Below, in pieces: positions 14,241 through 39,079 of a stretch of DNA of 64,000 bases. Origin of the DNA: a virus (Duplodnaviria > Caudoviricetes); the IMG/VR virus record IMGVR_UViG_3300029314_000064, positions 1-64,000 of that record; one strand, given 5' to 3'. The notes below the pieces were generated by a model. The model ran no database searches and was not told where the DNA came from. It worked only from the letters and a program-made list of their open reading frames with translations. A program made the position numbers and the translations under genes. The first letter of the stretch is position 1. The number at the start of each line of letters is the position of its first letter.

Positions 14241-14298
14241 TTTGTTTTCAATTTAGTATCTCTTCAACTTCTTATCTTTCTAACTTCTAAATGAAATA

Positions 14299-15624: not shown

Positions 15625-16085
15625 TGTCCCTCTGCTGCTTTATCAGATCTAGATGGAACCTTCATGCCGGGTAGCGTATTATTGTATCTTGTTAACACAA
15701 CTGCTGATTTAAGATTACCGTCTGACGTGACAGGAAGTGTTTTATTTTCAATCATTGATAAAGTCATCGATAATATATCCTTATCAATAATTCCTAATTC
15801 AACGAATGAGTGCATTAGAACTTGCACTCTGTCTCTTACGACTCTTGTATTCATTTTAGTTAATTGAGTCTGATCCTCTAGTTTTCCTAATCTAAATAAA
15901 GATTGGCCTAGCTTATCAGACATTCTTTTTATTAGAGTCGCTTGGTTATTGATAATATTACCTAATTCCTGTACCATCATTTGTAGTATTGCGATTTTTT
16001 CTTCATTGCTTTTTGCTTGGCCTAGCGGATTTATATTCATATCGCTTTTTAGTTTTGTCTTTTTAATATTTGTCAAAGCCATCAA
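15621..16085 (-). CDS. Hypothetical coiled-coil protein, paralog of 13308..13748
   Basis: Heptad-like helix; overlaps both the tail-tip gene stop and the GT9 start. Confidence 0.7.
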   Translation of the reverse strand: MMALTNIKKTKLKSDMNINPLGQAKSNEEKIAILQMMVQELGNIINNQATLIKRMSDKLGQSLFRLGKLEDQTQLTKMNTRVVRDRVQVLMHSFVELGIIDKDILSMTLSMIENKTLPVTSDGNLKSAVVLTRYNNTLPGMKVPSRSDKAAEGQ

Positions 16086-18448
16086 ATCTCCATGAGTTTA
16101 AGATCTAACTTACTGTAAGAATACCTTGTTTCCAAAACAATACATTTCTGCTCAACCCACCCACCTGGAGCCAATGATGAAGTTACAGAAACACAGTCTC
16201 CAATCTCTAGTGGGTTATCCAGTATTTCATCAACATAAGCAATTTCGCAATTCAAAAATATTCTTCTCTTCGAATGCATGTCTACATAAATATCAGCAAG
16301 TTGATTTGCAGTGTAATCATCTATAACATCTCTAAACTCTATAACACCCTTACTTCTTTCGAATCCATTTTTAGCATAGGATTCTCTACAAACGCTATCA
16401 GTAAGTTTGTTTTTGATAATGACTCGATTAAATTTATTTGTTGGATAATCATAAAAGTATTTGAAAATAAAATCATTATAAACTTCTTCAGTCTTATTGT
16501 ATTCCATTTCTTGTTTTACTATATGCTCGTCTTCTCTTAAATACAACTTTGGATTATTTTTAATCTTAGATGGAATTATTGTTTTCATTTTAAATCTATT
16601 TGCTTCGACAAAAACAATAGAACAGCACTGTTTACACCATCTATCTATAATGTCTTGACCATTTTCTATTTCTGTTAATGCTGTGTCGAATCTCCAATTA
16701 TCCAAAAGCATTCTAGATTTTCTAAATGATTCTATATCTATAATATTTTTGTTTAAGTTAACTGATGTGTAATTCATTAAAAAATGTAAGATTATGTCTG
16801 CAGGATTTTTTATTAATGAAGTATTTTTTACATCTTCTACTTTATCCATTGTTGTAATTACGGTCCCTAAAGTTCCTTGAGCTAAATCTTCTTTAGGACC
16901 AAAACCAGTATAAAATCCATCTATGGTATCCTGCCATCCCTCAACAGAAATATAAAGTTTAGAATTACCGAGACCATATCTTATTGGATATTGGGCTCTC
17001 TGTTCTAGTGGTGTTGTTAAATCATACCAATCAAATTCTCCACCTCTTAATTTAACTCCCTGAATAATCTCTCCCTTAAGAGATGTTAATTTAACAACCT
17101 TATGTAGTGGACTCACTAATCTCACGCGGTGATCTAAATACTGATTAGATCTATTACTTCCGCCTCTAAATCTTTTTGGAAAAGGATTAGGTATCCAATT
17201 TTTATTTAATGGAGCAATCTTTGCATCAACAACTCTTTTATCTTCAAGAGACCAATAAACTTCAGTTCTTAATGCATCCATAATTTCAAATAAATCTTCT
17301 GTGCCTGAACCTGCTGTTGCTAATCCATATGCTGTGTATCCAGTACCGTATGAATCTTTATAATTCCAAACATTATTATCTGCGCCAACAACATTAACTC
17401 CATTCATAATAGTTGGATCAGGAATTTCACCTAACTTACATGGATGGCATGCAAAAAGATAAACATCGTCTCCTACACCGAAAGAATTTGTTCTAGTGGA
17501 CTTTTGCCCAATAGCCCAAATCATTGGAACTCTTTCTGGAGCACCATAAATAATTGGGACTGGTGAGCCAACAGATTCTGCATTCTGTGGTACAGGATTT
17601 TTAATTAATCTCATAGTGATAGAACCATTAAGATTATATGTAAAATCATCTGTTGTAAGAGTATTGTTGATAATACTTAAAGCAGTTTCATCTGCTCTTA
17701 TTAAGTATTTCTCTAAAACAGAATTGAAGTAAATAAGCGGCCCTTCACTTTTCACAACAACAGCAAATTGACCAGATGCATTATTAGTGTGATCTGAAGG
17801 TCTTGTATCCATAATAACATCTAATCTAGAACCCTTCCAAAAATTCTTCGGTCTTCCATTTAATGTTCCAGATCCAATACTATTCACAAGAGTAACAGAT
17901 TTACTTCCTGCTGTTGCTGCTGTTCCACTTCCAACAATAGAATTATCCCCTATTGGTTGAAGTGATGTGTAATAGGTTGCGTCTGTCAATATGAAAGATG
18001 ACTGAAATGTATTTTCATCAAAAATAACAGAAGGAACACTCTTAAAATATAATTTTTGAGAATCTTTAATAGACATATTGAAATTAAGTTTATCCCACTT
18101 AGGAGAAGAAGCAATTCCATTTATTTCTAAAAATTTACATGTCATATCTTCTAATGGACCACCACGAAGATATTTAAGTGTTATTCCTGTAAAACTTTCT
18201 GGATGTAAATTAATATGATCTTGTATTCTGTCTGAGTTTACCATTGAAATATTGCTGGCAACTGAAACAGATGCTTTAAAATCATAAATACTGAATGATT
18301 TAGTAACACCACCTTCACTTCTTAGTTTGCCATCGTATTGTATTATTTGTTCATTTTCTTTTATCTTCATCGCCTGTGAAGAATAAAATAATTTCTTTGT
18401 TCCTAAATCTATTTCTAATAATGGAATTAATTTATTTGTGATACCCAT
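16082..18448 (-). CDS. Tail tip / baseplate hub protein
   Basis: PVPIIYG and KNPADIILHFL motifs and an LEIGDCVSV C-terminus, typical of siphoviral tail-tip hub proteins; downstream of the tape measure. Confidence 0.75.
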   Translation of the reverse strand: MGITNKLIPLLEIDLGTKKLFYSSQAMKIKENEQIIQYDGKLRSEGGVTKSFSIYDFKASVSVASNISMVNSDRIQDHINLHPESFTGITLKYLRGGPLEDMTCKFLEINGIASSPKWDKLNFNMSIKDSQKLYFKSVPSVIFDENTFQSSFILTDATYYTSLQPIGDNSIVGSGTAATAGSKSVTLVNSIGSGTLNGRPKNFWKGSRLDVIMDTRPSDHTNNASGQFAVVVKSEGPLIYFNSVLEKYLIRADETALSIINNTLTTDDFTYNLNGSITMRLIKNPVPQNAESVGSPVPIIYGAPERVPMIWAIGQKSTRTNSFGVGDDVYLFACHPCKLGEIPDPTIMNGVNVVGADNNVWNYKDSYGTGYTAYGLATAGSGTEDLFEIMDALRTEVYWSLEDKRVVDAKIAPLNKNWIPNPFPKRFRGGSNRSNQYLDHRVRLVSPLHKVVKLTSLKGEIIQGVKLRGGEFDWYDLTTPLEQRAQYPIRYGLGNSKLYISVEGWQDTIDGFYTGFGPKEDLAQGTLGTVITTMDKVEDVKNTSLIKNPADIILHFLMNYTSVNLNKNIIDIESFRKSRMLLDNWRFDTALTEIENGQDIIDRWCKQCCSIVFVEANRFKMKTIIPSKIKNNPKLYLREDEHIVKQEMEYNKTEEVYNDFIFKYFYDYPTNKFNRVIIKNKLTDSVCRESYAKNGFERSKGVIEFRDVIDDYTANQLADIYVDMHSKRRIFLNCEIAYVDEILDNPLEIGDCVSVTSSLAPGGWVEQKCIVLETRYSYSKLDLKLMEI

Positions 18449-21400
18449 CAGAGCACCTCTTCAAGATTCAAAGAAACAGATCCAAGAAGACCATCTCTCT
18501 TAAGATTAACATTACTAGAGGATACTCTAACCATATAGAAATCTGTTGTCATTTTTTTAATTCCATAAACATTCAGTAATGACGATTCATTAAATTGTCC
18601 TTTATTATTAGGATCTTTTTTGATATTTAAATCTTGAGGGATAAAATAGAATACATCTTTAGTTAAAGAAATATTCTTTAATAGATTCTGTATTTGTCCA
18701 AATTGTTTTCTGTGTCCTACTTCTGAAGCACTGTATTGAATATTGAAAGACTTAATATCTTTATTATTTGATAGCTGAATAGGTACGCCTCTTCCTGATA
18801 ATTTTTGCTGAAGCACAGTTGGACTTCTTTGCGTATAAGAAAAACCATTTTGTAATGGATTCTCTGCCTCTTCAAAAATACCAAACGAAATACTGCCTAT
18901 TCTAGCAAATCCATCATACGGTGGATCTCTATTTGCAGATGCTATTCCAGCAGGGCTAGAACCTGGAAGTATATCTGCTGAAGTCATATCTATTAATATA
19001 TGTCTTGCGACTATTGTTTTAGGAAGAACAAACAAATGTTTATTCTCTTGGACATATACATTTTCTCCAATTAACATACCTGACTCAAAAAATCTATTTC
19101 CTGTCATAACTCCAAAGTAATCTTTATCAAAAAATTTGAAAGTCATCATAGCTGAAGCATCATCAAACCACTGGCACGCAGTGCATCTCATTGATAAATA
19201 GTAACCATAATTATCAGTATAAATATATAAATCTTTTCCAACTATACCTCTATTACGAACATAACTTAAAAAGTTAGAATCATAAACTAATAATGTATTA
19301 CGATCAACAATTGAAGATAGAAAATCAACAAAAAATCCTTGACTTGTTGTATCTTCAGTAAGTGCCTGATCATATCTATATATCATAAATGCAGTGTAAT
19401 CAGGATACATAGGAGCATTATCTTGGCTTGGTGCATAATGTAACTTCATTCCATTGATATTATGATTATAAAGCGCAACAGAATTAAAAGCTACATTTTG
19501 TCCGAAGTCTATAGTGATAACTTGCGGGGTTGTTGCATCATAACTTTCCCAAGAAATAGAAGGTCTTATATCCATCAGCTTACTTGGACTGTTCTTTTGT
19601 TGTAACGAATTAAACTCAAACACAGTATTGGCTGTAGCATCGTTCCCAGACCACGCGATTCTCGCTCCATTCGGCAAATAGGTATCGGTCGGTAGGCAAG
19701 GCTGGGGCAATACTGCGTCAGTTCTCAGACCCAATAGGCTGTTTGTGATTAGAGTATTCATTCCTAATGAAGACCATCCCTCAGAATGATATTTGAAAAA
19801 CACAGCATTCGTTGCATCACCAGTAATAGATGAAGGCCATCTCCACATATTCCCAATTTTAATTCCTGTATCTGCAATAAATGCAGCAGTTCCAGCAGTA
19901 CAAAGATTATAATATAACATTGTCCAATCTCTATTGTTTTCGTATTTTGCAAACACTCTGTGTGCGTGCGTATTATCTAAAGTACGAAAACGATTTAGAG
20001 TTACTAAAAATTCAATATTTCTTGTTGCATCCCATCCTGCAATAGCTCTATACATATTCTGATCTACAGAACCAGAAGATCTAATACCTATATGATCCTT
20101 ACCTAATAAAATTTGAACTCCTGTTTTATTTGTATTCCCAACAGCAGTCTGAGCCAAGCATGAATAATGAACCATGCTTGTTATATCTCTATAAAAAACA
20201 GAATCTAGAGAGCATATAAAATGTGAGAACATTCCTCTAGTTGAATCTACATCGTGTTGGCATCCACGATTTCCTTTAAATGTGTTTGCAGTATTTCCTT
20301 GATGTTTCAAATCGCATCCAAAACTTCCTAATGCAACACCATCTGCTCTCATAAATTGTATTTCCCAATATTTTTTAGTTGGGAAAATTGTTCTTACTGT
20401 ATTACTTGTTGGCGCTCCCGCATCAGCTTCCCATCCTACATAAGTTGAATCAGGATACCTAGCGGGAGTCAAATAATTTATTTTTCTTGGCTTAATATTA
20501 AGATTAGACCATCCAGGTCTATGAATCAAAACTGGAATATGATAATCAATGCAGTCGTTAATGGTTGATGCGAGAGAAGGAACTATACCTTGGATAATTT
20601 TCATTCCAAGCATAAAGTAAGAATTCTTGTATTCTGTTGCAGCAACAATAAAGAAATTATTTCTTGGATACTGCCAATCTAAGGCAGTTGTATCATTATA
20701 TTGAACTTCGCTGTAATCTCCAATAATAGAATCATAGTGGTGCGAAAGAGAAGATAAATTATATCTTCTTCCTGAAAATGTTCTTTTATGTCCATGTGAA
20801 GGGCCAATTAGTTTTCTAGCTCTCCATGGAGAATTTGCAAATTTAAATTGAGATAAATAAGAATCTGTAACTTTTTTCATCTCAATTGGAATCATAAAAG
20901 GATTTGGTATCCAACTAAATTTTCCTAGTTGGTTGCTAACAGAAAAGTCTGCATATTCATCGAAAGAGTTAGTGCTTAAATCAACATTAGTATTCCTATA
21001 CATCATGCCACCATTCGCAATCAAATAAGTAATATTATTAGAATCTGTAAAAGGAACCAATCTCTGCAGGAAATTTGTTGTTGGATATCCTGTTGCAACT
21101 CTATCAGCTAACGAAAAAGCATAGGTTGGAGTATTGTCTGTTGCTCCATCTCCAATAACATTTGTGGCAGACATGTTCTGCATCAAACAAACATCCCAAT
21201 TTTTTAATTCATTAGATAAATTATTCATTACAATCATTACTGTTGGAGAGTATCTGTTTGATCCAGTTGGAGAAAGCCTGACCATATTGAACACGAAAAA
21301 TTTTGAATTCTTAGGATCATATGTTAAACATGAGTCTTGTATTGTCCATGTATAATTATTCATATGTCTTTGTATTAAAACATTGAAATCTATTTCGCTT

Positions 21401-22491
21401 GTCTTAAATGTTCTTCCTAAGTCTTCAGAATAAAATACAGTTCCTGATCTCGTAGGTGTATTAGATTCTGCTGTGTTTGTTGTAAATCCACAAAAACAAA
21501 CAATCTTATTTTCTGCATAAACCATATTGAAATTTATAGGAAATGTTATAGAACCATGTGTTCTACCAGACACAGGATTACTGTATGAGTTAAATGGAAT
21601 TTTAACTTCAGAATAATCTGACCAAGTAACTCCATTATCTTTAGATAATTTAAAATGAATAAAATAATCAAAAGTCGTATTATTTAAATCATATGCTCCA
21701 ATCTTAACATATCCAATAAGTAATCCTAATTTATCAACATATATCATTTTTGGATTATGTTTAGAATTTCTTAAAGTAGGACCGAATAATGCATTTATAT
21801 TTTCTTCAACCATAACTGGATTACCAAATGTTCCATCTGTATCAACAAATCTGGAATGCCAGAGTGTTGCGGTGAATGTAGTTGCATCAGGTCCATAAAT
21901 AGAATTGAAACACAGACTTAATCCTGTTGGTGTAGCACACAAGTCTCCATGCCCAAAAGTATTTGGAGCACTGGCTGCATTTCTGTCTCCTGAGTACCAA
22001 TTGAATTTTCCACCAAAATCTCTTAATACTTCAGTCATATAATTATCAAATCTATCTCTACCTAAATAACTACCTAATGCTCCTTCTCCAACTTCCTTAT
22101 AAATAAAATGTGGTGTTTGAGGTTGAATATTCTGATGACCAATCTCTTGAGCAGAGTGACTTGAACCAATAGTTAATCTGCCTGCCTCAGGATATTCAAT
22201 ACCTAATAAAGGTTGATAATCGTCTACGCTTGGCTCTATAAATCTAGGACCACCCTGAAACCATGGTGTTGTAGAATCAAGATAAACAATTAATCTAGGA
22301 TTTTCTGAGTCAAGATGATTAATTTCTCTTTGATCTAATATGATCGGCTTTAAACCACTAATGTATGTGGTATTGTCCTGATCCAACGAAAATGTTTTCA
22401 CAACTTTAGAAGTTTTATTAGATCCAATACTCTTTGGATTAATATTAACTGGCCTCATAAATCCGCCATCAAAAAAATTGCATATAGGCAT
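18448..22491 (-). CDS. Large minor tail protein with Asp-box (BNR/sialidase-like) repeats
   Basis: SKDNGVTWS and SEDLGRTF Asp-boxes; C-terminal region homologous to 22491..26930; located in the tail module. Confidence 0.7.
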   Translation of the reverse strand: MPICNFFDGGFMRPVNINPKSIGSNKTSKVVKTFSLDQDNTTYISGLKPIILDQREINHLDSENPRLIVYLDSTTPWFQGGPRFIEPSVDDYQPLLGIEYPEAGRLTIGSSHSAQEIGHQNIQPQTPHFIYKEVGEGALGSYLGRDRFDNYMTEVLRDFGGKFNWYSGDRNAASAPNTFGHGDLCATPTGLSLCFNSIYGPDATTFTATLWHSRFVDTDGTFGNPVMVEENINALFGPTLRNSKHNPKMIYVDKLGLLIGYVKIGAYDLNNTTFDYFIHFKLSKDNGVTWSDYSEVKIPFNSYSNPVSGRTHGSITFPINFNMVYAENKIVCFCGFTTNTAESNTPTRSGTVFYSEDLGRTFKTSEIDFNVLIQRHMNNYTWTIQDSCLTYDPKNSKFFVFNMVRLSPTGSNRYSPTVMIVMNNLSNELKNWDVCLMQNMSATNVIGDGATDNTPTYAFSLADRVATGYPTTNFLQRLVPFTDSNNITYLIANGGMMYRNTNVDLSTNSFDEYADFSVSNQLGKFSWIPNPFMIPIEMKKVTDSYLSQFKFANSPWRARKLIGPSHGHKRTFSGRRYNLSSLSHHYDSIIGDYSEVQYNDTTALDWQYPRNNFFIVAATEYKNSYFMLGMKIIQGIVPSLASTINDCIDYHIPVLIHRPGWSNLNIKPRKINYLTPARYPDSTYVGWEADAGAPTSNTVRTIFPTKKYWEIQFMRADGVALGSFGCDLKHQGNTANTFKGNRGCQHDVDSTRGMFSHFICSLDSVFYRDITSMVHYSCLAQTAVGNTNKTGVQILLGKDHIGIRSSGSVDQNMYRAIAGWDATRNIEFLVTLNRFRTLDNTHAHRVFAKYENNRDWTMLYYNLCTAGTAAFIADTGIKIGNMWRWPSSITGDATNAVFFKYHSEGWSSLGMNTLITNSLLGLRTDAVLPQPCLPTDTYLPNGARIAWSGNDATANTVFEFNSLQQKNSPSKLMDIRPSISWESYDATTPQVITIDFGQNVAFNSVALYNHNINGMKLHYAPSQDNAPMYPDYTAFMIYRYDQALTEDTTSQGFFVDFLSSIVDRNTLLVYDSNFLSYVRNRGIVGKDLYIYTDNYGYYLSMRCTACQWFDDASAMMTFKFFDKDYFGVMTGNRFFESGMLIGENVYVQENKHLFVLPKTIVARHILIDMTSADILPGSSPAGIASANRDPPYDGFARIGSISFGIFEEAENPLQNGFSYTQRSPTVLQQKLSGRGVPIQLSNNKDIKSFNIQYSASEVGHRKQFGQIQNLLKNISLTKDVFYFIPQDLNIKKDPNNKGQFNESSLLNVYGIKKMTTDFYMVRVSSSNVNLKRDGLLGSVSLNLEEVL

Positions 22492-25400
22492 TAGTTAATC
22501 TCCTCAACATCCAAAGAGATAGTATGGATGCCATCGTTTGTTCTTTCAAAATCAGGTTCATTAATTATTCTACATAACATAAATTCTCTAGGATTATCTT
22601 CTTGATCATCAAACATCCAAAGTGTCTTATTTGATCCATATAATTCAACAAACATATTTCTTAATTTCTGAGCCTGTATAGGATTCGTAGTCGTGTACTT
22701 AAATTTCTTGGATTTCCTAACTCTTGACGTCTCAAATGAAATAGAACTTAGGTTCTCAAAATTAACCTTTTGCTGGCTAGATAAAAGAGCAATATCTGAA
22801 TCTGAATCTATATCATCTTCTAGGTGAGTAATCCTTCCTATATCAAACTCACCAATCTCTCTGTACTTTTCATAAAATATTCTACCTTGTGCAGTTTCAT
22901 CTCCAATTAATGGACCATTACCTGATTGCGCTTCAGGAATTCTTATTCTCCAGTATGAATAAGGAGATGTAGGATTTATTCTTACACTCAGGTTACCGTC
23001 ATATATTAAATATCTCATTCCAGCAGTTAAATCTATAAGCCTGTTTCCGATATAGAAAGTTATATTCTTTTCGTCATTGTCTAATATTTTAAAGACAACA
23101 TGCTTATAATTAACTGACTCATATCTGCATTGTTCAAACTGAATAAATTTTCCTGCATGTTCACCAGGACGCCAAGACTTATTTGGATCATTAAATGATA
23201 AAGTTGTTGAATACGTATCAGCTAAATATCCAGTTGTTGAATGTAATTCTGCATCTATAACACCTTCATCATCATCAAAGAATATTTCCTTAGAATATAA
23301 AGCTGGAGTGACAGCATTCGCCATAGACTGATTTGCTGCTTCAACAAAACATCTTCTAAAATTAGCGTTTCTAAAAACAACCATATTGGCTGATAATGTA
23401 TATATTCCATTATCTGTTGCATCCATTACTATAACAGATGTTGTAGAATCAGAAACAGATCTCCAAACTTTAAAAGGTTCTTTTTCTAGAATTGTTGATA
23501 CATGTGTTGCTGAATCGATTTCGAAAGTAAACTTATCATTTTTTTCTCCTTCGAAACCCTTCCATGCACACACAATATTATTATCATGATTATTCGAATC
23601 ATTAGGATGACATGTAAAACCATTATAATATTCTTTGTCTGTTTCTGTAGATCTATTTGTTATTCCTTCACCAGGGTGCAATAATCTAGATCTTCTTGTT
23701 GTCTGTGTTGGAGCAAGAGTTCTTGATGCAAATAAATACTGAACATGGAATGGCGTTACTGCTCCAGTTCCAATCACAATTGTATTCACGATGGCGCCAA
23801 CATCTGTAAATGGACTTACGAAATCTAATTTTTTATCCCAAACAATTTTTTTATTATCTGATAAATCTAAATTCTCAGAATAAATTTGGCCATGGTATGA
23901 ATTATCTGTTGTTCTTTCAACAACATATCTGTACTTTCTTAATTTTTTAGGATCAACAAGTGCTTTTCCTAATCTTGCATTTGTATTTCTATCATAAGCC
24001 CATATAGATGTTATATCCCAACCGACAGCAATTGCTGATTGTTCCCATGAGGCAGCAGCTAATTTCCTTCCTTCTAAATAGAAGCTTATTGCTCCACCGG
24101 CATTGGTTGTATCTGTATAAATAGGTTCATTAAACATTCTCCATTCAGATTTAAACCCACCACGATATACAGCACCTATTCCTACATACACATTATAAGG
24201 TCTATCTAAATATCTTTTCTCTCCATCGCTTTGAATCGCATAATCTGTTGAAACATTAATTAATGCACCAGCGATAGTTGAATCAACAGAAACACTACCA
24301 CCTAAAACATTTAATTCCTGAGGATACAAAAATCCCTCATCAAAATCTAGTTCTGTTGGCTCATTAGAAGAAAGACCATATTTCATTATTGTAAAATAAG
24401 TTTGAATAGAACTTGATCCTTCAGCTGATGTTGTCAGTAATATATTATCATCCGAATCTACTGTTGAATTACCAATATATCTTGCCTTTGAAGAAGCTGC
24501 CTTTCTAGAACACTGAAGAAATCTTCCCATTAATTCAAATTGGGTTTTGTTGAAATTTGTTCTTAATAATCCAAATGATGTTGCATCTAATGTTCCTGGA
24601 AGAACACCAACAATATCTCCAAAATTATCAACAGCGCAATGTATTTTCTTATGGAATGTTCTTGATACTCCAATTGTAATGGGCGCATAGATATAAAAAT
24701 CACTTATCCAACCTGAAGATAAGAAACTTTCAAAATTATCAAGTGATCCATTTGGCATATATGGACCACGCAATATTTCAACATTTCCTGTATTAAGGCC
24801 AACAAGTCCAAGTGTAAATCTCTTTTGAACATTATCAAAGCATGGAGAAATTCTATATATGGTATCATCATTCTTAAGAATTGAATATTTTAGATAATTT
24901 GTAAATGTATCTTTTGTTGAATAATTATCTTTCATTGTATGATAAATCTTTAATTTAGGAGCAAAATGACCAGAAGTTATTTGTGATGTAGAAACGAATG
25001 TGAAAATAGATTTATCATTTCCAGGTATCTTCAAAGATACAACATCTTCTGAATATGTATGAACATCCTGGAATTCTATAAAGCTAAATGAAGAACCAGA
25101 CCTAGCAAGTGACCATGTAGTCCCACTGTCAAAACTTTCATAGAAAACACGACACACAAATCTGTGAGATTGACTGGTATTAAGATAATCGCAATTCATC
25201 GCCAGAACGTGTTTATCTGGAAACACAAGTATATCTGCCTTGGGTGTGGCAAAGTTAAAAGTCAGAGTCCGTGACGCACCGTCAGGCTGATACATTTGAT
25301 TAACAATTGTAAGCGGAGCAGTCGCATTGACTGCAACTCTAGATCCAAGTGTTTTTGTTATGAAATTAAATACTCTAGTATGAACTCTAAAATTTGTGCC

Positions 25401-26930
25401 GTCGGATACAGTTTCAAGAACATAATAACTTGTTGAGTCTCTATCAAATACTTTGTACTCATCACGGATCGGTGTTTCTCCAGCAGTTGCGGTGATGAGC
25501 ATATGTTCAATTACTGAGAATTTAGCTTCTCTTCCATACCAATATGTAGAATCATTGAATAAATATTGCGGTAAATCATTCTGTCCAACAGATGCCTTAC
25601 TGTTAAAGAATGCGCTTGCGCCACCGAATGTATTCAGTAGGTTTGTTGAATCAGTTCCAAACGCATATCTTTCCTGTAATGTTCCATGCTTGCAGATTTG
25701 TAGGGCATATGTCTTATCTAATCTAACTGTCGAATTATTTAAGGAAAGACTTGGATAAGTATTTCCATAATTTGTTGTTTCTCTATAAACATCACCAATA
25801 TACAAATCAGTATTTAGATCTTCTGTTTTTGCCTTATTGAATAAATTATCAAACATAAACTGAGTTGTTCTTCCACTCAACATGTCTGTTTTTTCAAATG
25901 AAGCAATACCGGAAATATTAGTGATTTTATTCACAGCACCAACAATATCCTGAACAGTAAGTATAACACTTGTATCTGAAGTCTGACCTCTTGGTTTCGA
26001 AAATCCTTCAACAGTATCGCCAGTTATTTTATGTATTCTTAAGTCTGTAGGATTTAAATCTCTATTAAAAGTTACAGCAGGTAATGAATCAAATCTATTA
26101 ATCTGGACCATTGGCTCAAATATAGTATCAACTGTTGCTACTCTTATGTGTATGTCAGGACTCATATTTTGTCCATTAGAATTAAAAATAAATTTATTTA
26201 ATGAGCCACCACCAAGAGCGTGCGGGAATGAATTGATAAAAATATCTACTTTATTTTTGAATAATTTACAAAATGTATTCGTATAATCTACATCCCTAGA
26301 GTCTACTCCATAATTCCATTCGCAGATCAATCTATTGCCTGCCCTAGCAAATCTAATCTGACGTATAGGAGTACCACAAATAAGTTCCTTAAATAAAGTC
26401 GTATCTCCAAATTCACCGATCGTTGATTCTGTTTTTGAATACAACTCTATTAATGGATTATTTGCTTTATTATAGAAAATTCTAAATCTTCTCTTAGAAT
26501 CTAAAGGAGAATCTAATTGAGCATAAAAACTTCCTAATACTGTACTGTCTGGTCTGCTGTTTAATCCAAAATTAATTGATGCAGAAGAATCAGTGTATAA
26601 ATTAAGAATATCCATCTTTCCAAATCTAAACTGGAAATTAAAATCGGTCGTACTGTCTCCGCCATAACTACCGAATCTTATATATCCATTTACAGGATAT
26701 GCGGTAATTGTGGCTTTCAGTATTCCGAATCTATTAGAAAATGTTAAATCCCTATCTATATTTGCGTCACTTACTGTCGGATCCAACCATGATGTTGGTT
26801 GTGTCGCAAAGTTAGTTGTTAGAGAAGATATATTAAATACTGTCGAATCTGTTGATAAAATTTTGACGAATCGCTCTTTGTTTGAACTTAATAGAATCGG
26901 ATTCAATCTGTCATAGTTTAGGATGGGCAT
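22491..26930 (-). CDS. Large minor tail protein (distal-tail position) with Asp-box
   Basis: Immediately after the tape measure; SFDSGTTWS Asp-box; paralogous C-terminus to the next gene. Confidence 0.7.
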   Translation of the reverse strand: MPILNYDRLNPILLSSNKERFVKILSTDSTVFNISSLTTNFATQPTSWLDPTVSDANIDRDLTFSNRFGILKATITAYPVNGYIRFGSYGGDSTTDFNFQFRFGKMDILNLYTDSSASINFGLNSRPDSTVLGSFYAQLDSPLDSKRRFRIFYNKANNPLIELYSKTESTIGEFGDTTLFKELICGTPIRQIRFARAGNRLICEWNYGVDSRDVDYTNTFCKLFKNKVDIFINSFPHALGGGSLNKFIFNSNGQNMSPDIHIRVATVDTIFEPMVQINRFDSLPAVTFNRDLNPTDLRIHKITGDTVEGFSKPRGQTSDTSVILTVQDIVGAVNKITNISGIASFEKTDMLSGRTTQFMFDNLFNKAKTEDLNTDLYIGDVYRETTNYGNTYPSLSLNNSTVRLDKTYALQICKHGTLQERYAFGTDSTNLLNTFGGASAFFNSKASVGQNDLPQYLFNDSTYWYGREAKFSVIEHMLITATAGETPIRDEYKVFDRDSTSYYVLETVSDGTNFRVHTRVFNFITKTLGSRVAVNATAPLTIVNQMYQPDGASRTLTFNFATPKADILVFPDKHVLAMNCDYLNTSQSHRFVCRVFYESFDSGTTWSLARSGSSFSFIEFQDVHTYSEDVVSLKIPGNDKSIFTFVSTSQITSGHFAPKLKIYHTMKDNYSTKDTFTNYLKYSILKNDDTIYRISPCFDNVQKRFTLGLVGLNTGNVEILRGPYMPNGSLDNFESFLSSGWISDFYIYAPITIGVSRTFHKKIHCAVDNFGDIVGVLPGTLDATSFGLLRTNFNKTQFELMGRFLQCSRKAASSKARYIGNSTVDSDDNILLTTSAEGSSSIQTYFTIMKYGLSSNEPTELDFDEGFLYPQELNVLGGSVSVDSTIAGALINVSTDYAIQSDGEKRYLDRPYNVYVGIGAVYRGGFKSEWRMFNEPIYTDTTNAGGAISFYLEGRKLAAASWEQSAIAVGWDITSIWAYDRNTNARLGKALVDPKKLRKYRYVVERTTDNSYHGQIYSENLDLSDNKKIVWDKKLDFVSPFTDVGAIVNTIVIGTGAVTPFHVQYLFASRTLAPTQTTRRSRLLHPGEGITNRSTETDKEYYNGFTCHPNDSNNHDNNIVCAWKGFEGEKNDKFTFEIDSATHVSTILEKEPFKVWRSVSDSTTSVIVMDATDNGIYTLSANMVVFRNANFRRCFVEAANQSMANAVTPALYSKEIFFDDDEGVIDAELHSTTGYLADTYSTTLSFNDPNKSWRPGEHAGKFIQFEQCRYESVNYKHVVFKILDNDEKNITFYIGNRLIDLTAGMRYLIYDGNLSVRINPTSPYSYWRIRIPEAQSGNGPLIGDETAQGRIFYEKYREIGEFDIGRITHLEDDIDSDSDIALLSSQQKVNFENLSSISFETSRVRKSKKFKYTTTNPIQAQKLRNMFVELYGSNKTLWMFDDQEDNPREFMLCRIINEPDFERTNDGIHTISLDVEEIN

Positions 26931-35900: not shown

Positions 35901-36211
35901 TTAATCGTATCCTGTAATTGAATTGCTTTAGATGAATCAATACTGTTGATGGCCTTAAGAGAATTAGAAAATTTAGCAATATTGTTCGAAACAGCAGGCA
36001 GGGATTTATTCAGAGAAACAATAGCGTTCTTCAATTCAACGACATCCTTAATGCCGTCTACCCTGACTGTAAACTTAATATTCATATACTTATCTAGGCT
36101 TTCTACAACTTTTCTAAAATTTTCTAAATCTTTTGTGATTTGAGGAATTTCATACTTTGAATTATTTTTAATGAAAGAAAATATAAGTTTAAGTTCTTTT
36201 TCGATAGCCAT
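26930..36211 (-). CDS. Tail tape measure protein (3093 aa)
   Basis: TP901-type core (LGSAGLS..., LADQGLRGGNAGRAVR), long helical Ala/Leu/Gln-rich body, hydrophobic repeats, C-terminal FAKGG...D.V.A...GEYII motif; follows the chaperones. Confidence 0.95.
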   Translation of the reverse strand: MAIEKELKLIFSFIKNNSKYEIPQITKDLENFRKVVESLDKYMNIKFTVRVDGIKDVVELKNAIVSLNKSLPAVSNNIAKFSNSLKAINSIDSSKAIQLQDTINKLSTVLSKFSIGQIKVDADQLAKVFEKLADTTVKNIAPMRDFENAIGRLSTKVQQSISSIKGLNQVFQLLQSLSSNVASATAGVKTPVFKSKESEIGALVQQYNKLTSTLDRTSVSIEKFNNLKNKNVDAGTSKQTSKDIKDFKGAYDNLGGVLGRLQEEYKLLNSQQDAASQKLAKSLLPALNAAGAQTQKYSDTLGKAEKASVALQNQERKLRDSYNEQFQTLGGVLKRQVEFLTGAGILAAVGTTIRSGFQVAFQTLNQVQTILTVSRSNFLSTAQTAELLADTMDDAARRTGSAVAEIGTVLKELGSAGLSTEQSIAALDSTMNNIIGTNSSVVETTRLVASTYNILGDSVTGTGNQIANFTRINDVFSRATLESSLELDQLVQALKFSLPASKEAGLSLEELTAILGQLADQGLRGGNAGRAVRAVLQQLSKDAPLIAKALDIEIDLSKPLDLLTIIQQYGEQIKGQELTVEQLGTVFERFGLRGADVFLLLAQNTDKLNKKIEDLNQNAAGSAGLAASLKLDSPERQFAIFTENVSRLSREILKPLIEVFISLIKTINSVAEKISLLANNDLAIFGARALTATLAIKSLGGALEFIGGRQIGASILSVATGTGSLAKGAQLASTAFTAVSGVLGKALPIIGLVGAAITAASLAFGLFAGNNKITIREIEKQIEKQSEVIRQSQKLSESYKTLSVDIVKLSKEYENGNITLEEYKNKLNAFSQLGPEVAEIIFRFGENASVAAEKIKELSDAQERLNEIQRKQLIGQQTEKFKAQALEAEELIGTYRKLNSEINNIQQKLELQIKFPDISNVSADSLKEELNAVTEQRKKSFDEVVKLINDIVAYSVTTTDKIASEQARGIATRLKRLIDPSEFTGLGTEANKIKDIVEDLEDKISGFNVKKLSFDIDQLKNNLTNATRGLEGFRNALLFKNETFVPIEEIEELTQKIKDLPEIVKKQQIGQKFINELNFKGLAQEFAERFNEAGLRSFKLDGLKSALNEAIDSDSNKQQIDAISAYVEQVANNQIKGIEKVKQENIKAGKSKIVIEEQYAKAIALTEAGRTKALTVIAALEAIPSRQRDVQLKAAVLQGEQDLINTERVKLYNAALTEASTIRRDIIKQDKFEVRISKEQLRLVQEENKSVEQLIKDLGLTPELQKRIFENLQTEIVARKKVRDSTEKLKKDLFDIKNNLTKATLELRVQQRIGASTIDQENQRRLLLLEELNIIEQRRADDINRDILLAEELKIRKELNEISRNELIAYQQIQGAAFELQNELLEVNSEHSETQKVLSKVKNSYKNILFLQRDIENATKLGGDAEKDILNKRISQVKEFLNIQNAYKEITELQKKEVSNAEKLLDIRLKINKAQQDLTNELSSRAEAPLRKLLENFFQSNDFSTTQAFVRSIGGGYEEIAFYAGDVNAKVDRFIEELRRGNVELKEYPKSIRDLAGVFEGANKEIRELRKQQNDLNQTKFTILEKEFARALDRGGQEGFDRATSIIDQLVSSFTIINEQTGGIDAGRTAGNLAVIQALQARIEEINTQKKANPLQGLIDGTALAADEFKALEAVINQAAAAIDRLNAAGSRSTNERIQNLFDQQRAPLEVERRASGGFIPGSGSGDIVPALLEPGEFVIPKAIVQKLGVDYFNKMIEGGQPAQRFALGGAIRKYAEGGSVTAGGFTAGFATSTEDKVMVGQLSILIGATAASNKLLENISTEVTGTGSDTVRNLEFLYNIVNSTSEQIQRPTLDSLNNGFRKLYDLSFESRNLLKIIAGAVDENYSKGGFATGGFVPGSGSGDIVPAMLEPGEFVIPKKIVDKYGIQFFEDLRKSQGFKTGGIVGYQRGGPVDDQFTPALLDKTRKETSLSKISKTEEALNQLTATLEANNLSLELNTKATITNTENFQKIIANAEKTKIPFKNPETGKTEEKIAEVEAKAKTATPGSVGGNNFVAVLETGQKIISEYIKSVKEAGVSTKNFFLQASGQAAERFLNKIENIGKSFEKLFKESIPGLLTFFLEDVVGANAEILENYAETRRNIAKTYNNQRADLIEQLKRNEISYFDFFDKLEDLQKQNKDDEIDAEKEKNLAIQEQLSRNLTAVAGITGEVIANLAETVADVLTGIPAFLNPVIDNLSKAIGGLGAGLGETIGGLAGAAGAIGGFALGAAAQFFSAVIQGFAGLIPVITKILTAPQAEFESFLDSLSKVPEEIDKQIGDMSGRIGRIVDVLVGGDVLKKVGESFGAAISAVFPQIATGFVQIIPEALRAVVPIISSVFDALPALMLSVFLSGGGLISAFVNLVQAAGAEFFDFFKDNLPNLIDVFILGLKSIFDPSNFNAFADTFTLVSEKLSGTLAAAGPQFVSGLVQAAPQLITSLASSIPGIIDSAIGSISSLTTGEDNPFLKIIDGFIRDIIEQAPKFIKKIPELLKGVFSTLLGGAGFLTEINDLIGAVVETIITNLPDVAGTLFEAFLEILPQIVEQATGFIGSLFAKGFGDEFIGLFQELGKSFSSIFDTFGDIFRSLFSVFKDGGLQKAIKTVFSLFSQLGKIFIQLLAPALSTAVSLLNQVFEEFAKIFEEVISDLISDGTLAELGELLFSLSTVLLQVLEPLTPLVKELMPVLVPLLTALVIIGLLPLITVLGTLILILYTVKLAIEAVNFVAEKLAAVAAFLAPYFEEIRTKIEPLVLILLGLTTSFGNFIIIMYAVAQAIKFFQDNQETISAGFDLFRESIDRFVTGFETLVERFSTAKDTMIQKLADFINGIIDLIPGARETIGNLNIPGFAKGGLVKGPSGRDAVTANVTAGEYIISKEAADKLGVSVLDFMNNPRNVDNIKNNSRLSKDSMVNDFLDVYNGVERGRVTPPSPSPGSGSDLNSLNQNTREFYLDNFYDERSGPSTGAGANNTVALESAFVSAINTSGLTGYDVSGGSSSGGLGSGGSQKVEVIVNFNNCNFSSEDAAQKVQDTIVEQFSNDQGELARILRENFEKGKK

Positions 36212-36220
36212 GATACTCCT

Positions 36221-37164: not shown

Positions 37165-37463
37165 GATATTATCCTTTGTTTGTTTTTCTTCTGGATGGAT
37201 CATCCAATCCAGGAAGCTTTTTGGGAGGTTCTCTGTAACTTCTTTAATGCATATCTTATCTATCTTCAAGATAAACAATATAAATCTATGCGGAACTAAA
37301 TTCCCTGTTTTATCAAAACTAAAATTTCTATAATAGAATGCCTGAATACTAAAGCTAACAATCAATAATATTAAACACAAAATAATCATTGGTGCTTGTA
37401 TGATATACCAAATACACATCATTGAATTGAGGTAAATTTTCTGCAATAAGTCCATTAATTCAC

Positions 37464-37492
37464 ATTATACACGAAAGCCCCACCTCTGACAA
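37464..37492 (-). promoter_or_regulatory. Sigma70-type promoter TTGTCA-N17-TATAAT
   Basis: -35 at 37487-92, -10 at 37464-69, 8 nt before ATG 37455. Confidence 0.65.
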
Positions 37493-37510
37493 TTCATCAG
37501 GGGTGGGGCT
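37476..37510. terminator. GC-rich hairpin after the tail tube gene (terminator-like)
   Basis: AGCCCCACCTCTGA / TCAGGGGTGGGGCT 14-bp stem with one mismatch and a 7-nt loop; short T-tracts on both strands. Confidence 0.7.
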
Positions 37511-37534
37511 CCGTTTTTACATGATTAGATTAAA

Positions 37535-39079
37535 TCAAACTCCGTATGGATCACGCTCAACAGAGTTCACAATAATCATAATCAATTCAGGCTCATCATC
37601 ATCAACATCGTAGATGGCCTGGAAAGGCATATCAAGAGTAATAACTTCAGGGCCACCAACAACAGGAGTGGTTCCTGTGTACTTCACTCTTGGGAAAATC
37701 ATATGCTTCTGACGGTATACGCCAGTTGAACCAATCTGGCCTAGCACACCGTCATCAACAGTACGAATTTCCAATTCAACGCCTTCAGAGTTCACAAACT
37801 TACGATAAAGAACCAGATCATCAAATTCAACACTCATCGTGCCAGTTACTTCACGTCTTTGCTCTGGCAACTGAGCTCTAAACTTATCACCAAGCTGGAA
37901 CTTATCAGTGAACAAGTTGTTGTTCAAAGTATAAGAAGCAGAAAGAACCTCAATGAATACGTTATTGAGATACATACCTGCTTGGAATGAAGTCAGAGAT
38001 TCAGTAGTAGGAGGAGTGAGAGTGCTTTCTGCGGCAGTGCTTTGTGGCGCAACAGGAACGTTTGCAGCGTGAGCTCTAGTGATAGAACCTGTGCTTGAAG
38101 TAGGAATACCAAACAACACAGCACTTCCGTTAGCATTAATAGTGATACCAGTATAAGTAATATCATTTTCACCTTCAATTTGCAGATAGTATGTAAGGCT
38201 TCCAAGCATTGCGCCCGCTGAAGTTCTTTGACGGAAACCAACAATACCTGTACCATCTTGAAGAATGAAAGTTGAAGTTCTAAGAGTCACTGTAGAGTCA
38301 CCGGCGGCAATTGCTGCTTGAGAATCTGCGCCGGAAGCTTCTGCACGACCAATCACACTGAATGTACCACCAAGAATTTCGCCTGCATTAAAATTCTCAG
38401 TCAGCTGATTGATTTTGCATCCAGTGTATGTAAAGAATACAACGTCACGACCAACTTCAAAAGTCAAACCAGTTGGTAATGTACGACCAGCTTCAAAGTA
38501 GTGAGTATAGACACTGGTATAGGTTGTAGAGTCAGTAAGGAATACTCTATCTCCTTCAATAGCAGCGGTGCCAAAACTGGTCACGCCAGTCAATGCAGTG
38601 CCGTCTGTCTTGCCAGTCCAACGGAACACATCAGAAACAAGGTTGTTACCGGAATCACGGGTAACAAGAGTTCCATAACCAGCGGTTGGCCATGAAGGGC
38701 TGACGTTATTAGCTCTTAACGTCAGTGAGGTAGAGTTAGCAGTTGCATCTACGGCAATTTGTGCTCTGACACCGCCGTCAGTTGCTAGAAGAGTAATAAC
38801 ATTACCTAATGCATGCTTATAAAGAGTTCCGAAACCAGTGGAGTTTTGTTCAAAGTTGATATCGCCACCAACGTCTGAAGTTCCACGAACCAAACCCTTG
38901 ACTGCACGGTTCGGTTCAAGAACCTGAGACTGTAATGCTCCAATGGAGTTCGCAATAGATTCGCTAACGAAATCAATTCTCTTAGTAGGAGGAACAGCAA
39001 CACCGTAACATCTTTCTTCACCAAAAGAAACTTGTGCGCGCGAACCAGTGGCAATTCGCGTTGTGCATGTAGTCGTCAT
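37535..39079 (-). CDS. Major tail tube protein with two inserted surface domains
   Basis: SFGEE..YG, VGGDINFE, YTGCKINQL, YTLNNNL, REVTGTMSVEF tube motifs; highly-expressed-type codon bias; upstream of the chaperones. Confidence 0.88.
   Translation of the reverse strand: MTTTCTTRIATGSRAQVSFGEERCYGVAVPPTKRIDFVSESIANSIGALQSQVLEPNRAVKGLVRGTSDVGGDINFEQNSTGFGTLYKHALGNVITLLATDGGVRAQIAVDATANSTSLTLRANNVSPSWPTAGYGTLVTRDSGNNLVSDVFRWTGKTDGTALTGVTSFGTAAIEGDRVFLTDSTTYTSVYTHYFEAGRTLPTGLTFEVGRDVVFFTYTGCKINQLTENFNAGEILGGTFSVIGRAEASGADSQAAIAAGDSTVTLRTSTFILQDGTGIVGFRQRTSAGAMLGSLTYYLQIEGENDITYTGITINANGSAVLFGIPTSSTGSITRAHAANVPVAPQSTAAESTLTPPTTESLTSFQAGMYLNNVFIEVLSASYTLNNNLFTDKFQLGDKFRAQLPEQRREVTGTMSVEFDDLVLYRKFVNSEGVELEIRTVDDGVLGQIGSTGVYRQKHMIFPRVKYTGTTPVVGGPEVITLDMPFQAIYDVDDDEPELIMIIVNSVERDPYGV

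Follow-up and report, generated by a model that had tools for sequence, protein, structure and literature searches.

A D-x-T tripeptide over-represented in three distal tail proteins of an uncultured phage, a candidate acceptor motif for the tail-operon GT9

INTRODUCTION

Three adjoining tail-tip proteins of an uncultured 147-kb phage, denoted here A, B and C, are rich in a short tripeptide that begins with Asp and ends with Thr, and their genes are followed by a set of glycosyltransferase (GT) genes. An earlier note on this DNA had proposed that D-[S/A/T/G/N]-T is enriched in exposed tail proteins and is the acceptor motif of the adjacent phage GTs. Is the tripeptide a modification motif, or does it serve the architecture of the tail tip? 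The question is addressed below for the window, a stretch of 64,000 nucleotides of this phage, with comparisons to the remainder of its proteome and to related and unrelated phages.

SPECIFICITY OF THE D-X-T EXCESS

The proteins concerned are encoded as follows:

22491..26930, minus strand: distal tail protein B (1479 aa), directly after the tape measure gene; 21 D-x-T, 9.5 expected; about 25 family-conserved D-x-T positions
18448..22491, minus strand: distal tail protein A (1347 aa); 18 D-x-T, 6.4 expected; 18 family-conserved positions
16082..18448, minus strand: tail-tip protein C (788 aa); 8 D-x-T, 3.4 expected; 5 family-conserved sites
37535..39079, minus strand: tail tube protein (514 aa, Phage_tube_2); 6 D-x-T, 3.4 expected, a marginal difference

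D-[SATGN]-T tripeptides occur 14 times in A (5 DAT, 3 DST, 3 DNT, 2 DTT and 1 DGT; 2.3 expected) and 13 times in B (8 DST, 2 DTT, 2 DAT and 1 DGT; 3.5 expected), and neither count was reached in any of 2000 shuffles. The tube has five of them (1.5 expected; shuffle p=0.012), the terminase one and the portal none. These numbers reproduce exactly the hand counts of the earlier note, and shuffling bears out the enrichment that it had asserted; its figure of about three for the tape measure has to be raised to five (3.0 expected). The choice of the pattern was no cherry-picking, because D-x-T tops an unbiased scan of the 400 a-x-b residue pairs in A and in B independently. Taken together, the two proteins have 39 D-x-T where 16.0 are expected (joint P=7.7e-7, or about 8e-7), which becomes approximately 1e-3 when 1200 patterns are corrected for.

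The motif is specific for both of its outer residues. In A and B combined, D-x-S is found 10 times against 16.4 expected and N-x-T 16 times against 17.9, while N-x-S and E-x-T are at expectation. The middle residue, on the other hand, is unrestricted: S and A are favoured in the studied phage and S, A, G and T across families, but W, Y, I, L, M, K, E and D are also found at conserved sites, where Pro occupies the middle position in 3 of approximately 330 cases. The initial description was thus right about the fixed Asp and Thr, and its set of five middle residues was too narrow. Counted from the Asp, aromatic residues are over-represented at positions +4 (10 occurrences) and +7 (13 occurrences), with 4.9 expected. 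The sites do not differ from the background in codon usage, which places the signal at the protein level.

The excess is confined to the distal tail proteins and is not generic to tail proteins. The remaining proteome of the phage is at baseline (124 D-x-T, 111.7 expected), as are the tape measure (8 against 8.5) and two Thr-rich proteins that start with a signal-like hydrophobic segment (8 against 7.6 and 8 against 6.7). The major capsid protein (43998-45272) shows no enrichment, with one D-[SATGN]-T where 0.6 is expected, and 'distal tail proteins' for this reason describes the distribution better than 'exposed proteins'; the claim of enrichment in exposed tail proteins holds for A and B and has to be extended to C, with the tube a marginal case. 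In tube proteins the D-x-T excess is about twofold, significant in no single protein and still present in distant homologs, and one tube site, D306-I-T, is kept throughout the Phage_tube_2 family. In a comparison set of 128 large ORFs from 64 GT9-less tail loci of other phages, the pooled observed-to-expected ratio (O/E) of D-x-T is 0.91 and the median 0.80; the highest value, 2.25, is not significant, and D-x-T ranks 277th of 400. As is demanded of a sequon, D-x-T is over-represented in the putative substrates relative to non-substrates.

CONSERVATION AND STRUCTURAL CONTEXT OF THE SITES

A search of 1.84 billion proteins yielded ten family representatives, all of which share the D-x-T excess, with P values that reach 1e-8 to 1e-9. 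The whole excess corresponds to approximately 48 anciently fixed sites. With conservation in 60 % or more of the family members as the cut-off, D-x-T yields 48 sites and the runner-up, I-x-N, 15, compared with 3 for D-x-S, 2 for N-x-T, 4 for N-x-S and 2 for D-x-N. At the D-x-T sites, conservation amounts to 92 % for D and 86-87 % for T, and both residues are retained down to 31-36 % sequence identity, whereas the middle residue is invariant at only 2 of 47 sites. The flanks are conserved at or below the family average and are prone to indels, and no extended motif is common to the sites; three of them directly precede strands with conserved R..E, H.H and F-K-Y residues. No enrichment is seen among D-x-T sites that are specific to a lineage (ratio 0.47, rank 334 of 400). 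Because the excess resides only at fixed sites, there is no sequon-like gain or turnover, and this pattern suits a structural motif at least as well as a modification sequon.

Protein A contains Asp-box motifs, a concanavalin A (ConA)/PL7-like jelly roll and a discoidin-like segment, and its conserved sites fall in all three regions. The jelly roll was the single domain for which a structural model was obtained:

19774..20232, minus strand: ConA-like/PL7-lyase-like beta-jelly-roll domain of A (residues ~754-906), predicted structure with pLDDT 60-84

The model matches the solved PL7 lyase 2cws with a Z score of 13.0 in VIA (rmsd 3.7, 180 residues aligned), and its Foldseek matches have E values of 1.6e-5 to 4.4e-5; by fold similarity, the predicted domain is a PL7/concanavalin A-like jelly roll. 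Five D-x-T sites lie inside it and a sixth (D749) just upstream. In the model, all six are placed at a loop-to-strand junction, with the Thr 0-3 residues before the start of the strand.

Homology between A and B is restricted to the last ~400 residues of each protein (hhalign 94.7 %), and the earlier description of the two as paralogs applies to that part; C is not known to be a relative of either. The site that the earlier note had placed at the same position in both proteins (SYDATT/VSDSTT) was found again in this alignment, as the sole common site detected there. A few true Asp-boxes are present in both A and B, apart from the D-x-T sites. The D-x-T sites themselves are not Asp-box/BNR repeats: D and T are spaced by two residues rather than four, and there is no conserved S, G or W/F nearby. 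No N-terminal hydrophobic segment or signal peptide was found in A, B or C.

THE LINKED GT9 MODULES AND GLYCAN CLUSTER

The stop codon of the gene for protein C overlaps the start of the next gene, and these features follow:

15621..16085, minus strand: small protein 1 (154 aa); its gene is translationally coupled on both sides, with that of the 788-aa tail protein and with GT9a
14452..15624, minus strand: GT9a (390 aa), heptosyltransferase-like, final gene of the tail operon
14298..14334, minus strand: terminator-like hairpin with a 16-bp stem after GT9a, closing the tail-linked transcription unit
13308..13748, minus strand: small protein 2 (146 aa), preceding GT9b
12094..13311, minus strand: GT9b (405 aa), a GT9a paralog with 38 % identity
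6427..12104, minus strand: rest of the glycan cluster, with a 192-aa ORF, four GT2-like genes, one methyltransferase-like gene and one radical SAM/SPASM gene

GT9a is thus joined by overlap to the tail genes and precedes the hairpin; the two small proteins are weak paralogs of each other. In all eight genomic contexts available for relatives, the order is B-A-C followed by a small protein and a GT9, with the tape measure gene (TMP) upstream; a second module of small protein and GT9, together with GT2 genes, is found downstream wherever the contigs reach that far. Among these eight contexts, from ten representatives, there is no relative without a GT9, and hence no counterpart to the GT-less control that the earlier note had proposed. 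In G002, a more distant relative, a glycan cluster follows the tail genes and a GT9 homolog with a Cys finger is present, yet neither D-x-T nor any other motif is in excess.

Both phage enzymes score above the curated threshold of the GT9 family model (Pfam PF01075; 38.8 and 45.1 bits, cut-off 22) and are assigned to GT9 on that sequence criterion. Known GT9 acceptors are mostly LPS cores. The profile of the phage enzymes matches WaaF (1psw) with E=2.6e-10, the likeness to LPS heptosyltransferases being limited to the C-terminal, donor-binding half; as equivalogs of LPS heptosyltransferase I, II or III they were rejected (37-46 bits, cut-offs 135-185). A C-x2-C-x2-H-x4-C-x11-C module at residues 332-355 of 390 is invariant in 13 of 13 phage GT9s; on its own, it had no match in the PDB. 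TibC is not among the PDB matches of the full-length GT9 profile at E<=10, and the two may nevertheless be remote homologs, because TibC and the phage GT9s share the heptosyltransferase fold class.

None of the cluster enzymes has a membrane segment, and the cluster contains no flippase or lipid-carrier transferase, so that a glycan would be assembled directly on a cytoplasmic acceptor. A scan of the 6.4-16 kb cluster revealed neither an oligosaccharyltransferase (OST) nor a GT41 enzyme. The genome also carries HldE-I-like and HldE-II-like genes, and a thymidylate-synthase-like gene sits in a separate operon. Heptosylation of DNA has been documented in phages (bioRxiv 10.1101/2023.12.21.572611).

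COMPARISON WITH KNOWN SYSTEMS

Like the N-x-S/T sequon used in N-glycosylation by oligosaccharyltransferases and by the cytoplasmic NGT/HMW1C, D-x-T spans three residues and has a free middle position in which Pro is disfavoured. In both, position i is an Asx residue and position i+2 carries a hydroxyl, Thr being preferred over Ser, and both are capable of forming an Asx-turn. D-x-T differs in that it starts with Asp, that N-x-T is not enriched in the phage proteins, and that its sites are fixed without turnover. As the side chain of Asp, in contrast with that of Asn, is not N-glycosylatable, Thr would have to be the acceptor.

To our knowledge, the bacterial autotransporter heptosyltransferases (BAHT family) act on Ser residues of beta-helix repeats and follow no D-x-T rule. 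These enzymes (TibC, AAH) are soluble and cytoplasmic, and they hyper-O-glycosylate large, beta-rich surface proteins before export or assembly; a Cys4 finger near their C-terminus, an iron finger formed in TibC by the conserved C339, C342, C358 and C370 in a C-lobe insertion, is required for recognition of the protein substrate (PMC4358343). The phage GT9s carry their C-x2-C...C-x11-C module at the same place, a likeness seen at the level of sequence, but have no detectable sequence match to TibC. In mycobacteriophages, phage-encoded glycosyltransferases are described as decorating virion structural proteins, with glycans on the C-termini of capsid and tail-tube subunits (Freeman et al. 2023, PMC10527164, as cited in PMC12619734). 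The candidate sites considered here are, in contrast, internal and conserved D-x-T tripeptides of tail-tip proteins. The capsid shows no enrichment of them, and the candidate enzymes belong to the GT9 family.

ALTERNATIVE EXPLANATIONS

The main rival to modification of Thr, a serious possibility that we nonetheless hold to be doubtful, is a purely structural motif, i.e., an autonomous Asx-turn or 'beta-strand N-cap' that is reused by all-beta tail-tip proteins. The Asp carboxylate would cap the main-chain NH at i+2, and the strand would start with the beta-branched Thr; the recurrence would be akin to that of the Asp-box hairpin in sialidase-type propellers, and the GT cluster would target something else, such as DNA, host LPS or other virion sites. 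This accounts for the location of the entire excess at fixed positions, for the common strand junction of the six sites in the modelled jelly roll, for the aromatics at +4 and +7, which are consistent with a strand after the motif, and for the rarity of Pro in the middle. It also fits the family-wide conservation of the tube site and the GT9 homolog of G002, which comes without an excess, and the true Asp-boxes in A and B are a precedent for short hairpins that contain D and T. A generic turn would, however, be expected in other beta-rich tail proteins, yet the 128 comparison ORFs, with their pooled O/E of 0.91, and the other proteins of the studied phage are at baseline. Equivalent turn-formers are scarce over 48 independent sites, and the sites span different fold types and sequences that are non-homologous between A and B outside their C-termini. 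The Asp-box (BNR; S-x-D-x-G-x-T-W) is likewise a short recurrent Asp/Thr motif, located at a beta-hairpin and purely structural. In it several positions are fixed, five in a single fold, whereas D-x-T has two fixed positions, variable flanks and several folds.

The sites might instead bind a ligand, the Asp carboxylate and the Thr hydroxyl together holding a cation (e.g., Ca2+ stabilising loops) or touching host polysaccharide within the lectin- and lyase-like domains, or they might be tags read by an assembly chaperone, for instance the small proteins adjacent to GT9. The identifiable domains, PL7/ConA-like, discoidin-like and Asp-box, are of carbohydrate-active or carbohydrate-binding types, the strands with conserved R..E, H.H and F-K-Y follow three of the sites, and conserved small proteins accompany the tail genes. 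We regard such roles as improbable: about 48 sites over ~3600 residues are too numerous and too evenly spread for ligand sites, no additional conserved ligand residues are found at them, and we know of no metal-binding motif of this form. Still less credible are targets of general O-glycosylation by the host at the Bacteroidota-type motif D-(S/T)-(A/I/L/V/M/T). That motif is also an Asp-anchored tripeptide, D-S-T and D-T-T satisfy both rules, and D[ST][AILVMT] occurs 15 times in B (6.7 expected). The excess disappears once T is left out of position 3 (D-[ST]-[AILVM] about 5 against 5 in B), which upholds the earlier view that the rule is D-x-T and not the Bacteroidota sequon. In the latter, the acceptor is the middle residue, which any residue with a methyl group may follow at position 3, whereas in the phage position 3 is Thr and the middle is free, being neither S nor T at about two thirds of the conserved sites. 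Bacteroidota O-glycosylation is moreover periplasmic and acts on exported proteins, while the phage proteins and enzymes are predicted to be cytoplasmic; A, B and C lack a signal peptide, and the phage proteins that have signal-like N-termini are not enriched. The sites thus depart from this motif both in the middle residue and in the expected export of substrates. That the excess arose by chance, from composition or as a DNA-level artefact can be set aside for practical purposes: the pattern had been chosen post hoc in the earlier note, but its first rank in two proteins independently, its significance after correction, the family P values, the background codon usage and the retention of D and T in distant homologs all speak against it.

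A POSSIBLE THR MODIFICATION MOTIF

The reading that we favour, with a rough probability of 0.45, is that D-x-T is a minimal, context-free acceptor motif on three distal tail proteins, for Thr modification (most likely O-glycosylation) by the GT9 of the tail operon. The earlier assignment to the adjacent GTs is thereby retained in a tentative form, weakened by the absence of site turnover, the match of the GT9s to LPS heptosyltransferases and the lack of an excess in G002. The specificity of the motif, its occurrence as context-free islands in different sequences and folds, its restriction to A, B and C, and the gene linkage in every relative suggest modification. The 48 conserved sites with few N or S variants count in the same direction, because an ordinary Asx-turn should accept N and S at some of so many independent sites. 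The solubility of the predicted enzymes and, by analogy, the layout of their Cys4-type module, which resembles that of the protein-recognising iron finger of TibC (PMC4358343), also suggest it.

Several observations weigh against modification. An excess at fixed sites only is the classic signature of a structural motif rather than of a sequon selected for density, and the regular strand-junction placement in the single modelled domain suggests the same. Beta-branched Thr is structurally favoured at the start of a strand. The match of the GT9 profile to WaaF and not to TibC, the GT9 homolog in G002 without a motif excess, and the lack of enrichment in the capsid, the most exposed protein, also suggest another role for motif or enzymes, and the HldE-like genes may serve DNA hypermodification instead.

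If D-x-T is nonetheless an acceptor motif, we infer rather than observe the modification itself, Thr as its acceptor, the enzyme that starts the glycan and the sugar, and the following course might be envisaged. Asp (i) and Thr (i+2) would adopt an Asx-turn, as in N-x-T, where a surface loop ends and a beta-strand begins, and this turn would be recognised on the folded or folding tail proteins, prior to assembly, by a soluble cytoplasmic enzyme. That enzyme would be GT9a, perhaps aimed by its small partner protein, and it would transfer a heptose-type sugar, for which the HldE-I-like and HldE-II-like genes could provide an ADP-heptose-type donor, onto the Thr hydroxyl. The glycan on the distal tail proteins would then be extended and decorated by products of the next transcription unit, namely GT9b, the GT2-like enzymes, the radical SAM enzyme and the methyltransferase(s).

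Gene Organization of the Tail and Enzyme Region

The window covers the initial 64 kb of a single viral contig of 146,652 bp with 35.8 % GC. On the minus strand, its head and tail genes (terminase, portal, capsid and a Phage_tube_2 tail tube) are followed by the tape measure gene, three genes for distal tail proteins, here called B, A and C, and a cluster of enzyme genes that includes two glycosyltransferases of family GT9:

37535-39079 (-), tail tube
26930-36211 (-), tape measure, 3093 aa
22491-26930 (-), distal tail protein B, 1479 aa
18448-22491 (-), distal tail protein A, 1347 aa
16082-18448 (-), distal tail protein C, 788 aa
15621-16085 (-), small protein 1, 154 aa, opening the enzyme cluster
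14452-15624 (-), GT9a
14334-14298 (-), terminator-like hairpin with a 16-bp stem, directly after GT9a
13308-13748 (-), small protein 2, 146 aa, paralog of small protein 1
12094-13311 (-), GT9b

The starts and stops of small protein 1 and GT9a overlap with the tail gene. Because the strong terminator-like hairpin directly follows GT9a, these two genes appear to be part of the tail operon, the other eight enzymes probably forming a second unit. Past the hairpin come a 103-aa ORF, small protein 2, GT9b, a 192-aa ORF and the remaining enzyme genes, namely four GT2-like, one methyltransferase-like and one radical SAM/SPASM gene. No membrane segment was detected in any protein of the enzyme cluster, and PHROGs returned no match for A, B, C, the GT9s or the small proteins. 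The latter could be adaptors or chaperones. They are weak paralogs of each other (BLASTP E=6e-5), and in the loci of relatives each GT9 found has a small protein before it.

A Specific Excess of D-x-T in the Distal Tail Proteins

On the basis of hand counts, the earlier note had proposed D-[S/A/T/G/N]-T as a putative sequon of the exposed tail proteins. A recount reproduced those counts, and the enrichment survives shuffling, with none of 2000 shuffles attaining the observed numbers in A or B. To guard against cherry-picking, all 400 a-x-b pairs were scanned, together with pairs at gaps 1 and 3. No other pair scores as high as D-x-T in A (18 observed vs 6.4 expected) or, independently, in B (21 vs 9.5); jointly this makes 39 vs 16.0 (P=7.7e-7, or ~1e-3 when corrected for 1200 patterns); that the excess is an artefact is hardly credible. 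The signal is highly specific. In A and B together, D-x-S occurs 10 times vs 16.4 and N-x-T 16 times vs 17.9, and none of N-x-S, E-x-T and the reversed T-x-D is above expectation. Ser-Gly, Thr-Gly and T-x-S-G likewise stand at expectation. The sites do not differ from the background in codon usage, so that the signal acts at the protein level and a DNA- or codon-level explanation was rejected.

The middle residue is freer than had been proposed: small residues predominate, but W, Y, I, L, M, K, E and D are found at conserved sites too. When scored as D-x-T, protein C is enriched as well (8 vs 3.4). The tail tube, also named in the earlier note, holds up in part, with 6 vs 3.4 and an approximately 2-fold ratio in all close relatives, but it is never significant alone; its ratio is similar in distant homologs, and the contrast between near and distant ones is unclear.

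Elsewhere D-x-T is at baseline. The proteome of the phage outside 16-27 kb contains 124 vs 111.7, and the tape measure 8 vs 8.5. Two Thr-rich (12-13 % Thr), GC-richer fibre-like proteins at 54174-60672 (+), which have N-terminal signal-like hydrophobic segments, show 8 vs 7.6 and 8 vs 6.7; in the second of them G-T is mildly raised (25 vs 13.2). A control set of 128 ORFs of at least 500 aa was drawn from a diverse set of 64 phage tail loci that lack GT9 and were retrieved via a conserved tape-measure motif. The ratio of observed to expected D-x-T has a median of 0.80 there and is 0.91 when pooled (rank 277/400), its maximum of 2.25 (3 vs 1.3) not being significant. Since both the phage's own proteome and these ORFs are at baseline, the ordinary Asx/ST-turn preference of β-rich proteins, set out beforehand as the case against a sequon, fails as a refutation.

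Conservation and Age of the Sites

Homology between proteins A and B is confined to the C-terminal ~400 residues (hhalign 94.7 %, E=6e-8, 17 % identity). The site earlier noticed at the homologous position of both (SYDATT / VSDSTT) was confirmed and is the only D-x-T found in common there; the other sites lie in sequence without detectable relation. Asp-box hairpins are present in each (F-D-S-G-T-T-W-S being one in B, K-D-N-G-V-T-W-S one in A), and the termini are alike, with MPI(C/L)N at the start and S(L)xxEEV/I at the end of both proteins; this suggests that they arose by an ancient duplication, after which the N-terminal two thirds diverged.

Sites were called conserved if D-x-T is present in at least 60 % of family members, which gives 18 in A, 25 in B and 5 in C. 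At these sites the D column is 92 % D, and the T column is 86-87 % T and ~7 % S. Counted in the same way, the 48 conserved D-x-T pairs are followed by I-x-N with 15, N-x-S with 4, D-x-S with 3, and N-x-T and D-x-N with 2 each. Conservation of D and T is far stronger within the motif than elsewhere: in B, T is invariant at 12 of 21 D-x-T sites vs 7 of 111 other T (p=2.5e-7). Only 2 of 47 sites have an invariant middle residue. Conservation of 0.92 for D and 0.86 for T stands against 0.4-0.6 in the flanks, which is at or below the family average. Indels are more frequent near the sites, and no extended motif common to them was found. No enrichment is seen among D-x-T sites that are lineage-specific (ratio 0.47, rank 334/400, under the median of control pairs). 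The entire excess is thus ancient and fixed, and sequon-like gain is absent.

Predicted Structure of Protein A

The family is too small for good structure models. An AlphaFold model of A residues 560-1347 from 5 sequences was unusable (mean pLDDT 37), and one of residues 700-1110 from 11 sequences contained a single confident domain, at residues ~754-906 (window 19774-20232, -; pLDDT 60-84). This domain is predicted to be a ten-stranded β-sandwich; by Foldseek it is similar to PL7 alginate lyases and further jelly rolls of the ConA-like type (E~1e-5), and a fold comparison gave a VIA Z of 13.0 (rmsd 3.7, 180 residues aligned). In the model, all six D-x-T sites placed (D749, 769, 821, 839, 855 and 892) are at the end of an inter-strand loop, where the Thr either opens the following strand or precedes it by 1-3 residues; this placement excludes four further sites in the discoidin-like part, where pLDDT is <50. 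Such predicted positions are compatible both with a structural strand cap and with a turn exposed at the surface for an enzyme to act on. The rest of A carries Asp-box motifs and a weak discoidin-like segment, so that D-x-T, which is not itself an Asp-box, recurs across fold types.

The conserved jelly-roll strands R-N-I-E-F-L, H-A-H-R and F-F-K-Y resemble the PL7 catalytic motifs RxELR, QIH and YFKAG, so that a polysaccharide lyase (depolymerase) may be present at the tail tip. Profile searches of the PDB gave no match for the A family and only a faint Asp-box echo for the B family (E=0.82).

Relatives and Their Genomic Contexts

With ten proteins retrieved by a profile search among 1.84 billion representatives, the A family is tiny. 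Each member has 17-25 D-x-T vs 6-7, and D-x-S, N-x-T and E-x-T are not in excess in the family. B orthologs show 24 vs 7.5, 28 vs 7.7 and 16 vs 5.4. Eight genomic contexts were fetched, and in each of them a small protein and a GT9 come after B, A and C; wherever the contig reaches, TMP is found upstream, and a second module of small protein plus GT9, with GT2 genes, downstream. None of the eight is a relative without GT9s. No match was obtained among deposited phages by tblastn with A and GT9b, scans of IMG/VR with A and with B found no relatives, and the ESM Atlas gave no usable match for A or B.

A distant relative, the viral contig G002 (IMGVR_UViG_3300009128_001633; 95.8 kb), has terminase, portal, capsid, tube and tape measure in common at 27-46 % identity, and after its tail genes a glycan cluster that includes a Cys-finger GT9 homolog. 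Its unrelated distal tail protein of 1381 aa shows no excess of D-x-T (15 vs 10.2) and no other standout motif, a mild negative for a modification. The GT9 domain of G002 is fused into a 634-aa protein adjoining a 627-aa ORF, and its tape measure has a strong G-x-x-P excess (15 vs 3.5).

Candidate Enzymes and Sugar Supply

GT9a and GT9b both score above the Pfam GT9 threshold; they match LPS heptosyltransferases in the donor-binding half only, far under equivalog cut-offs. Outside all of these matches, near the C-terminus, lies a C-x2-C-x2-H-x4-C-x11-C module that is invariant in 13 of 13 phage GT9 sequences. The more distant viral GT9 homologs (L012, L013) come from a scan with two patterns, one being the core CxPCF(L/M)HG. 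The module and its orthologs are at:

14455-14630 (-), Cys module of GT9a
12200-12330 (-), Cys module of GT9b
Loci L001, L002, L005 and L009-L011, orthologs

The layout and position of the module resemble those of the iron finger of TibC, a protein O-heptosyltransferase of E. coli (C339-x2-C342-x15-C358-x11-C370), which is needed for oligomerisation and for binding of the protein substrate (PMC4358343). Neither a full-length GT9 profile nor a Cys-module profile detected TibC, and a plasmid tblastn for the link gave generic GT9 matches only. Since the layout is alike but neither profile reaches TibC, the analogy is only a lead.

Two genes of possible relevance to sugar supply are split and distant from the glycosyltransferase cluster, on the whole contig (G000):

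G000:C1:124457-125443 (-), L007, HldE-I-like, E=1.7e-41, with one in-frame TAG
G000:C1:128733-129077 (-), L008, HldE-II-like, E=1.4e-14

They may serve a separate DNA-hypermodification operon that has a thymidylate-synthase-like gene in it; heptosylated phage DNA has been documented (bioRxiv 10.1101/2023.12.21.572611). A search of the genome for a Tet/JBP dioxygenase gave no match and is uninformative, as control genomes gave none either.

Possible Roles of D-x-T

That D-x-T is a modification motif is given a probability of roughly 0.45. This is argued for by the strict specificity for D and T over 48 sites, their island-like conservation, the spread of the sites over unrelated sequence and folds, the confinement of the motif to three proteins encoded in an operon with a GT9 as its last gene, and the soluble nature of the enzymes, which would work without a carrier. 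A structural strand cap is a serious but less probable alternative: turnover is wholly absent, placement at loop-strand junctions is regular in the model, and G002 has a GT9 homolog and no D-x-T excess. Binding or assembly sites seem improbable, and a host sequon of the Bacteroidota type far more so, because two defining features of that motif were tested and neither was found, which leaves D-x-T outside it. What probability remains goes to other explanations.

As to the modification, a tentative proposal, less probable than the general claim, is that D-x-T might be an undescribed cytoplasmic O-glycosylation sequon. A phage GT9-type heptosyltransferase with a TibC-like Cys finger would recognise it on ~fifty surface turns of the three tail-tip proteins, helped by a small adaptor protein; a cluster of six enzymes would lengthen the sugar afterwards, giving the host-recognition apparatus a coat of methylated glycan. 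D-x-T is alike in form to N-x-T, of which it is proposed as the O-linked counterpart, and perhaps alike in logic to BAHT hyper-heptosylation. A literature search found no D-X-T O-glycosylation motif. In mycobacteriophages, as PMC10527164 is relayed in PMC12619734, virion glycosylation is on the C-termini of capsid and tube, without a defined sequon.

If structural, D-x-T would be an unusually clean, lineage-specific, two-residue β-strand-cap motif and a cautionary case for sequon hunting. As a sequon, it would give phage virion glycosylation its first defined acceptor rule and would represent a new type of O-glycosylation rule, with Asp at -2 of the acceptor Thr and a cytoplasmic GT9-type enzyme as its writer. 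In that case some large environmental phages would be covering their host-recognition machinery with sugar at dozens of fixed positions, with consequences for host range, for resistance to proteases and to recognition by hosts or grazers, and for the engineering of glycosylated phage proteins.
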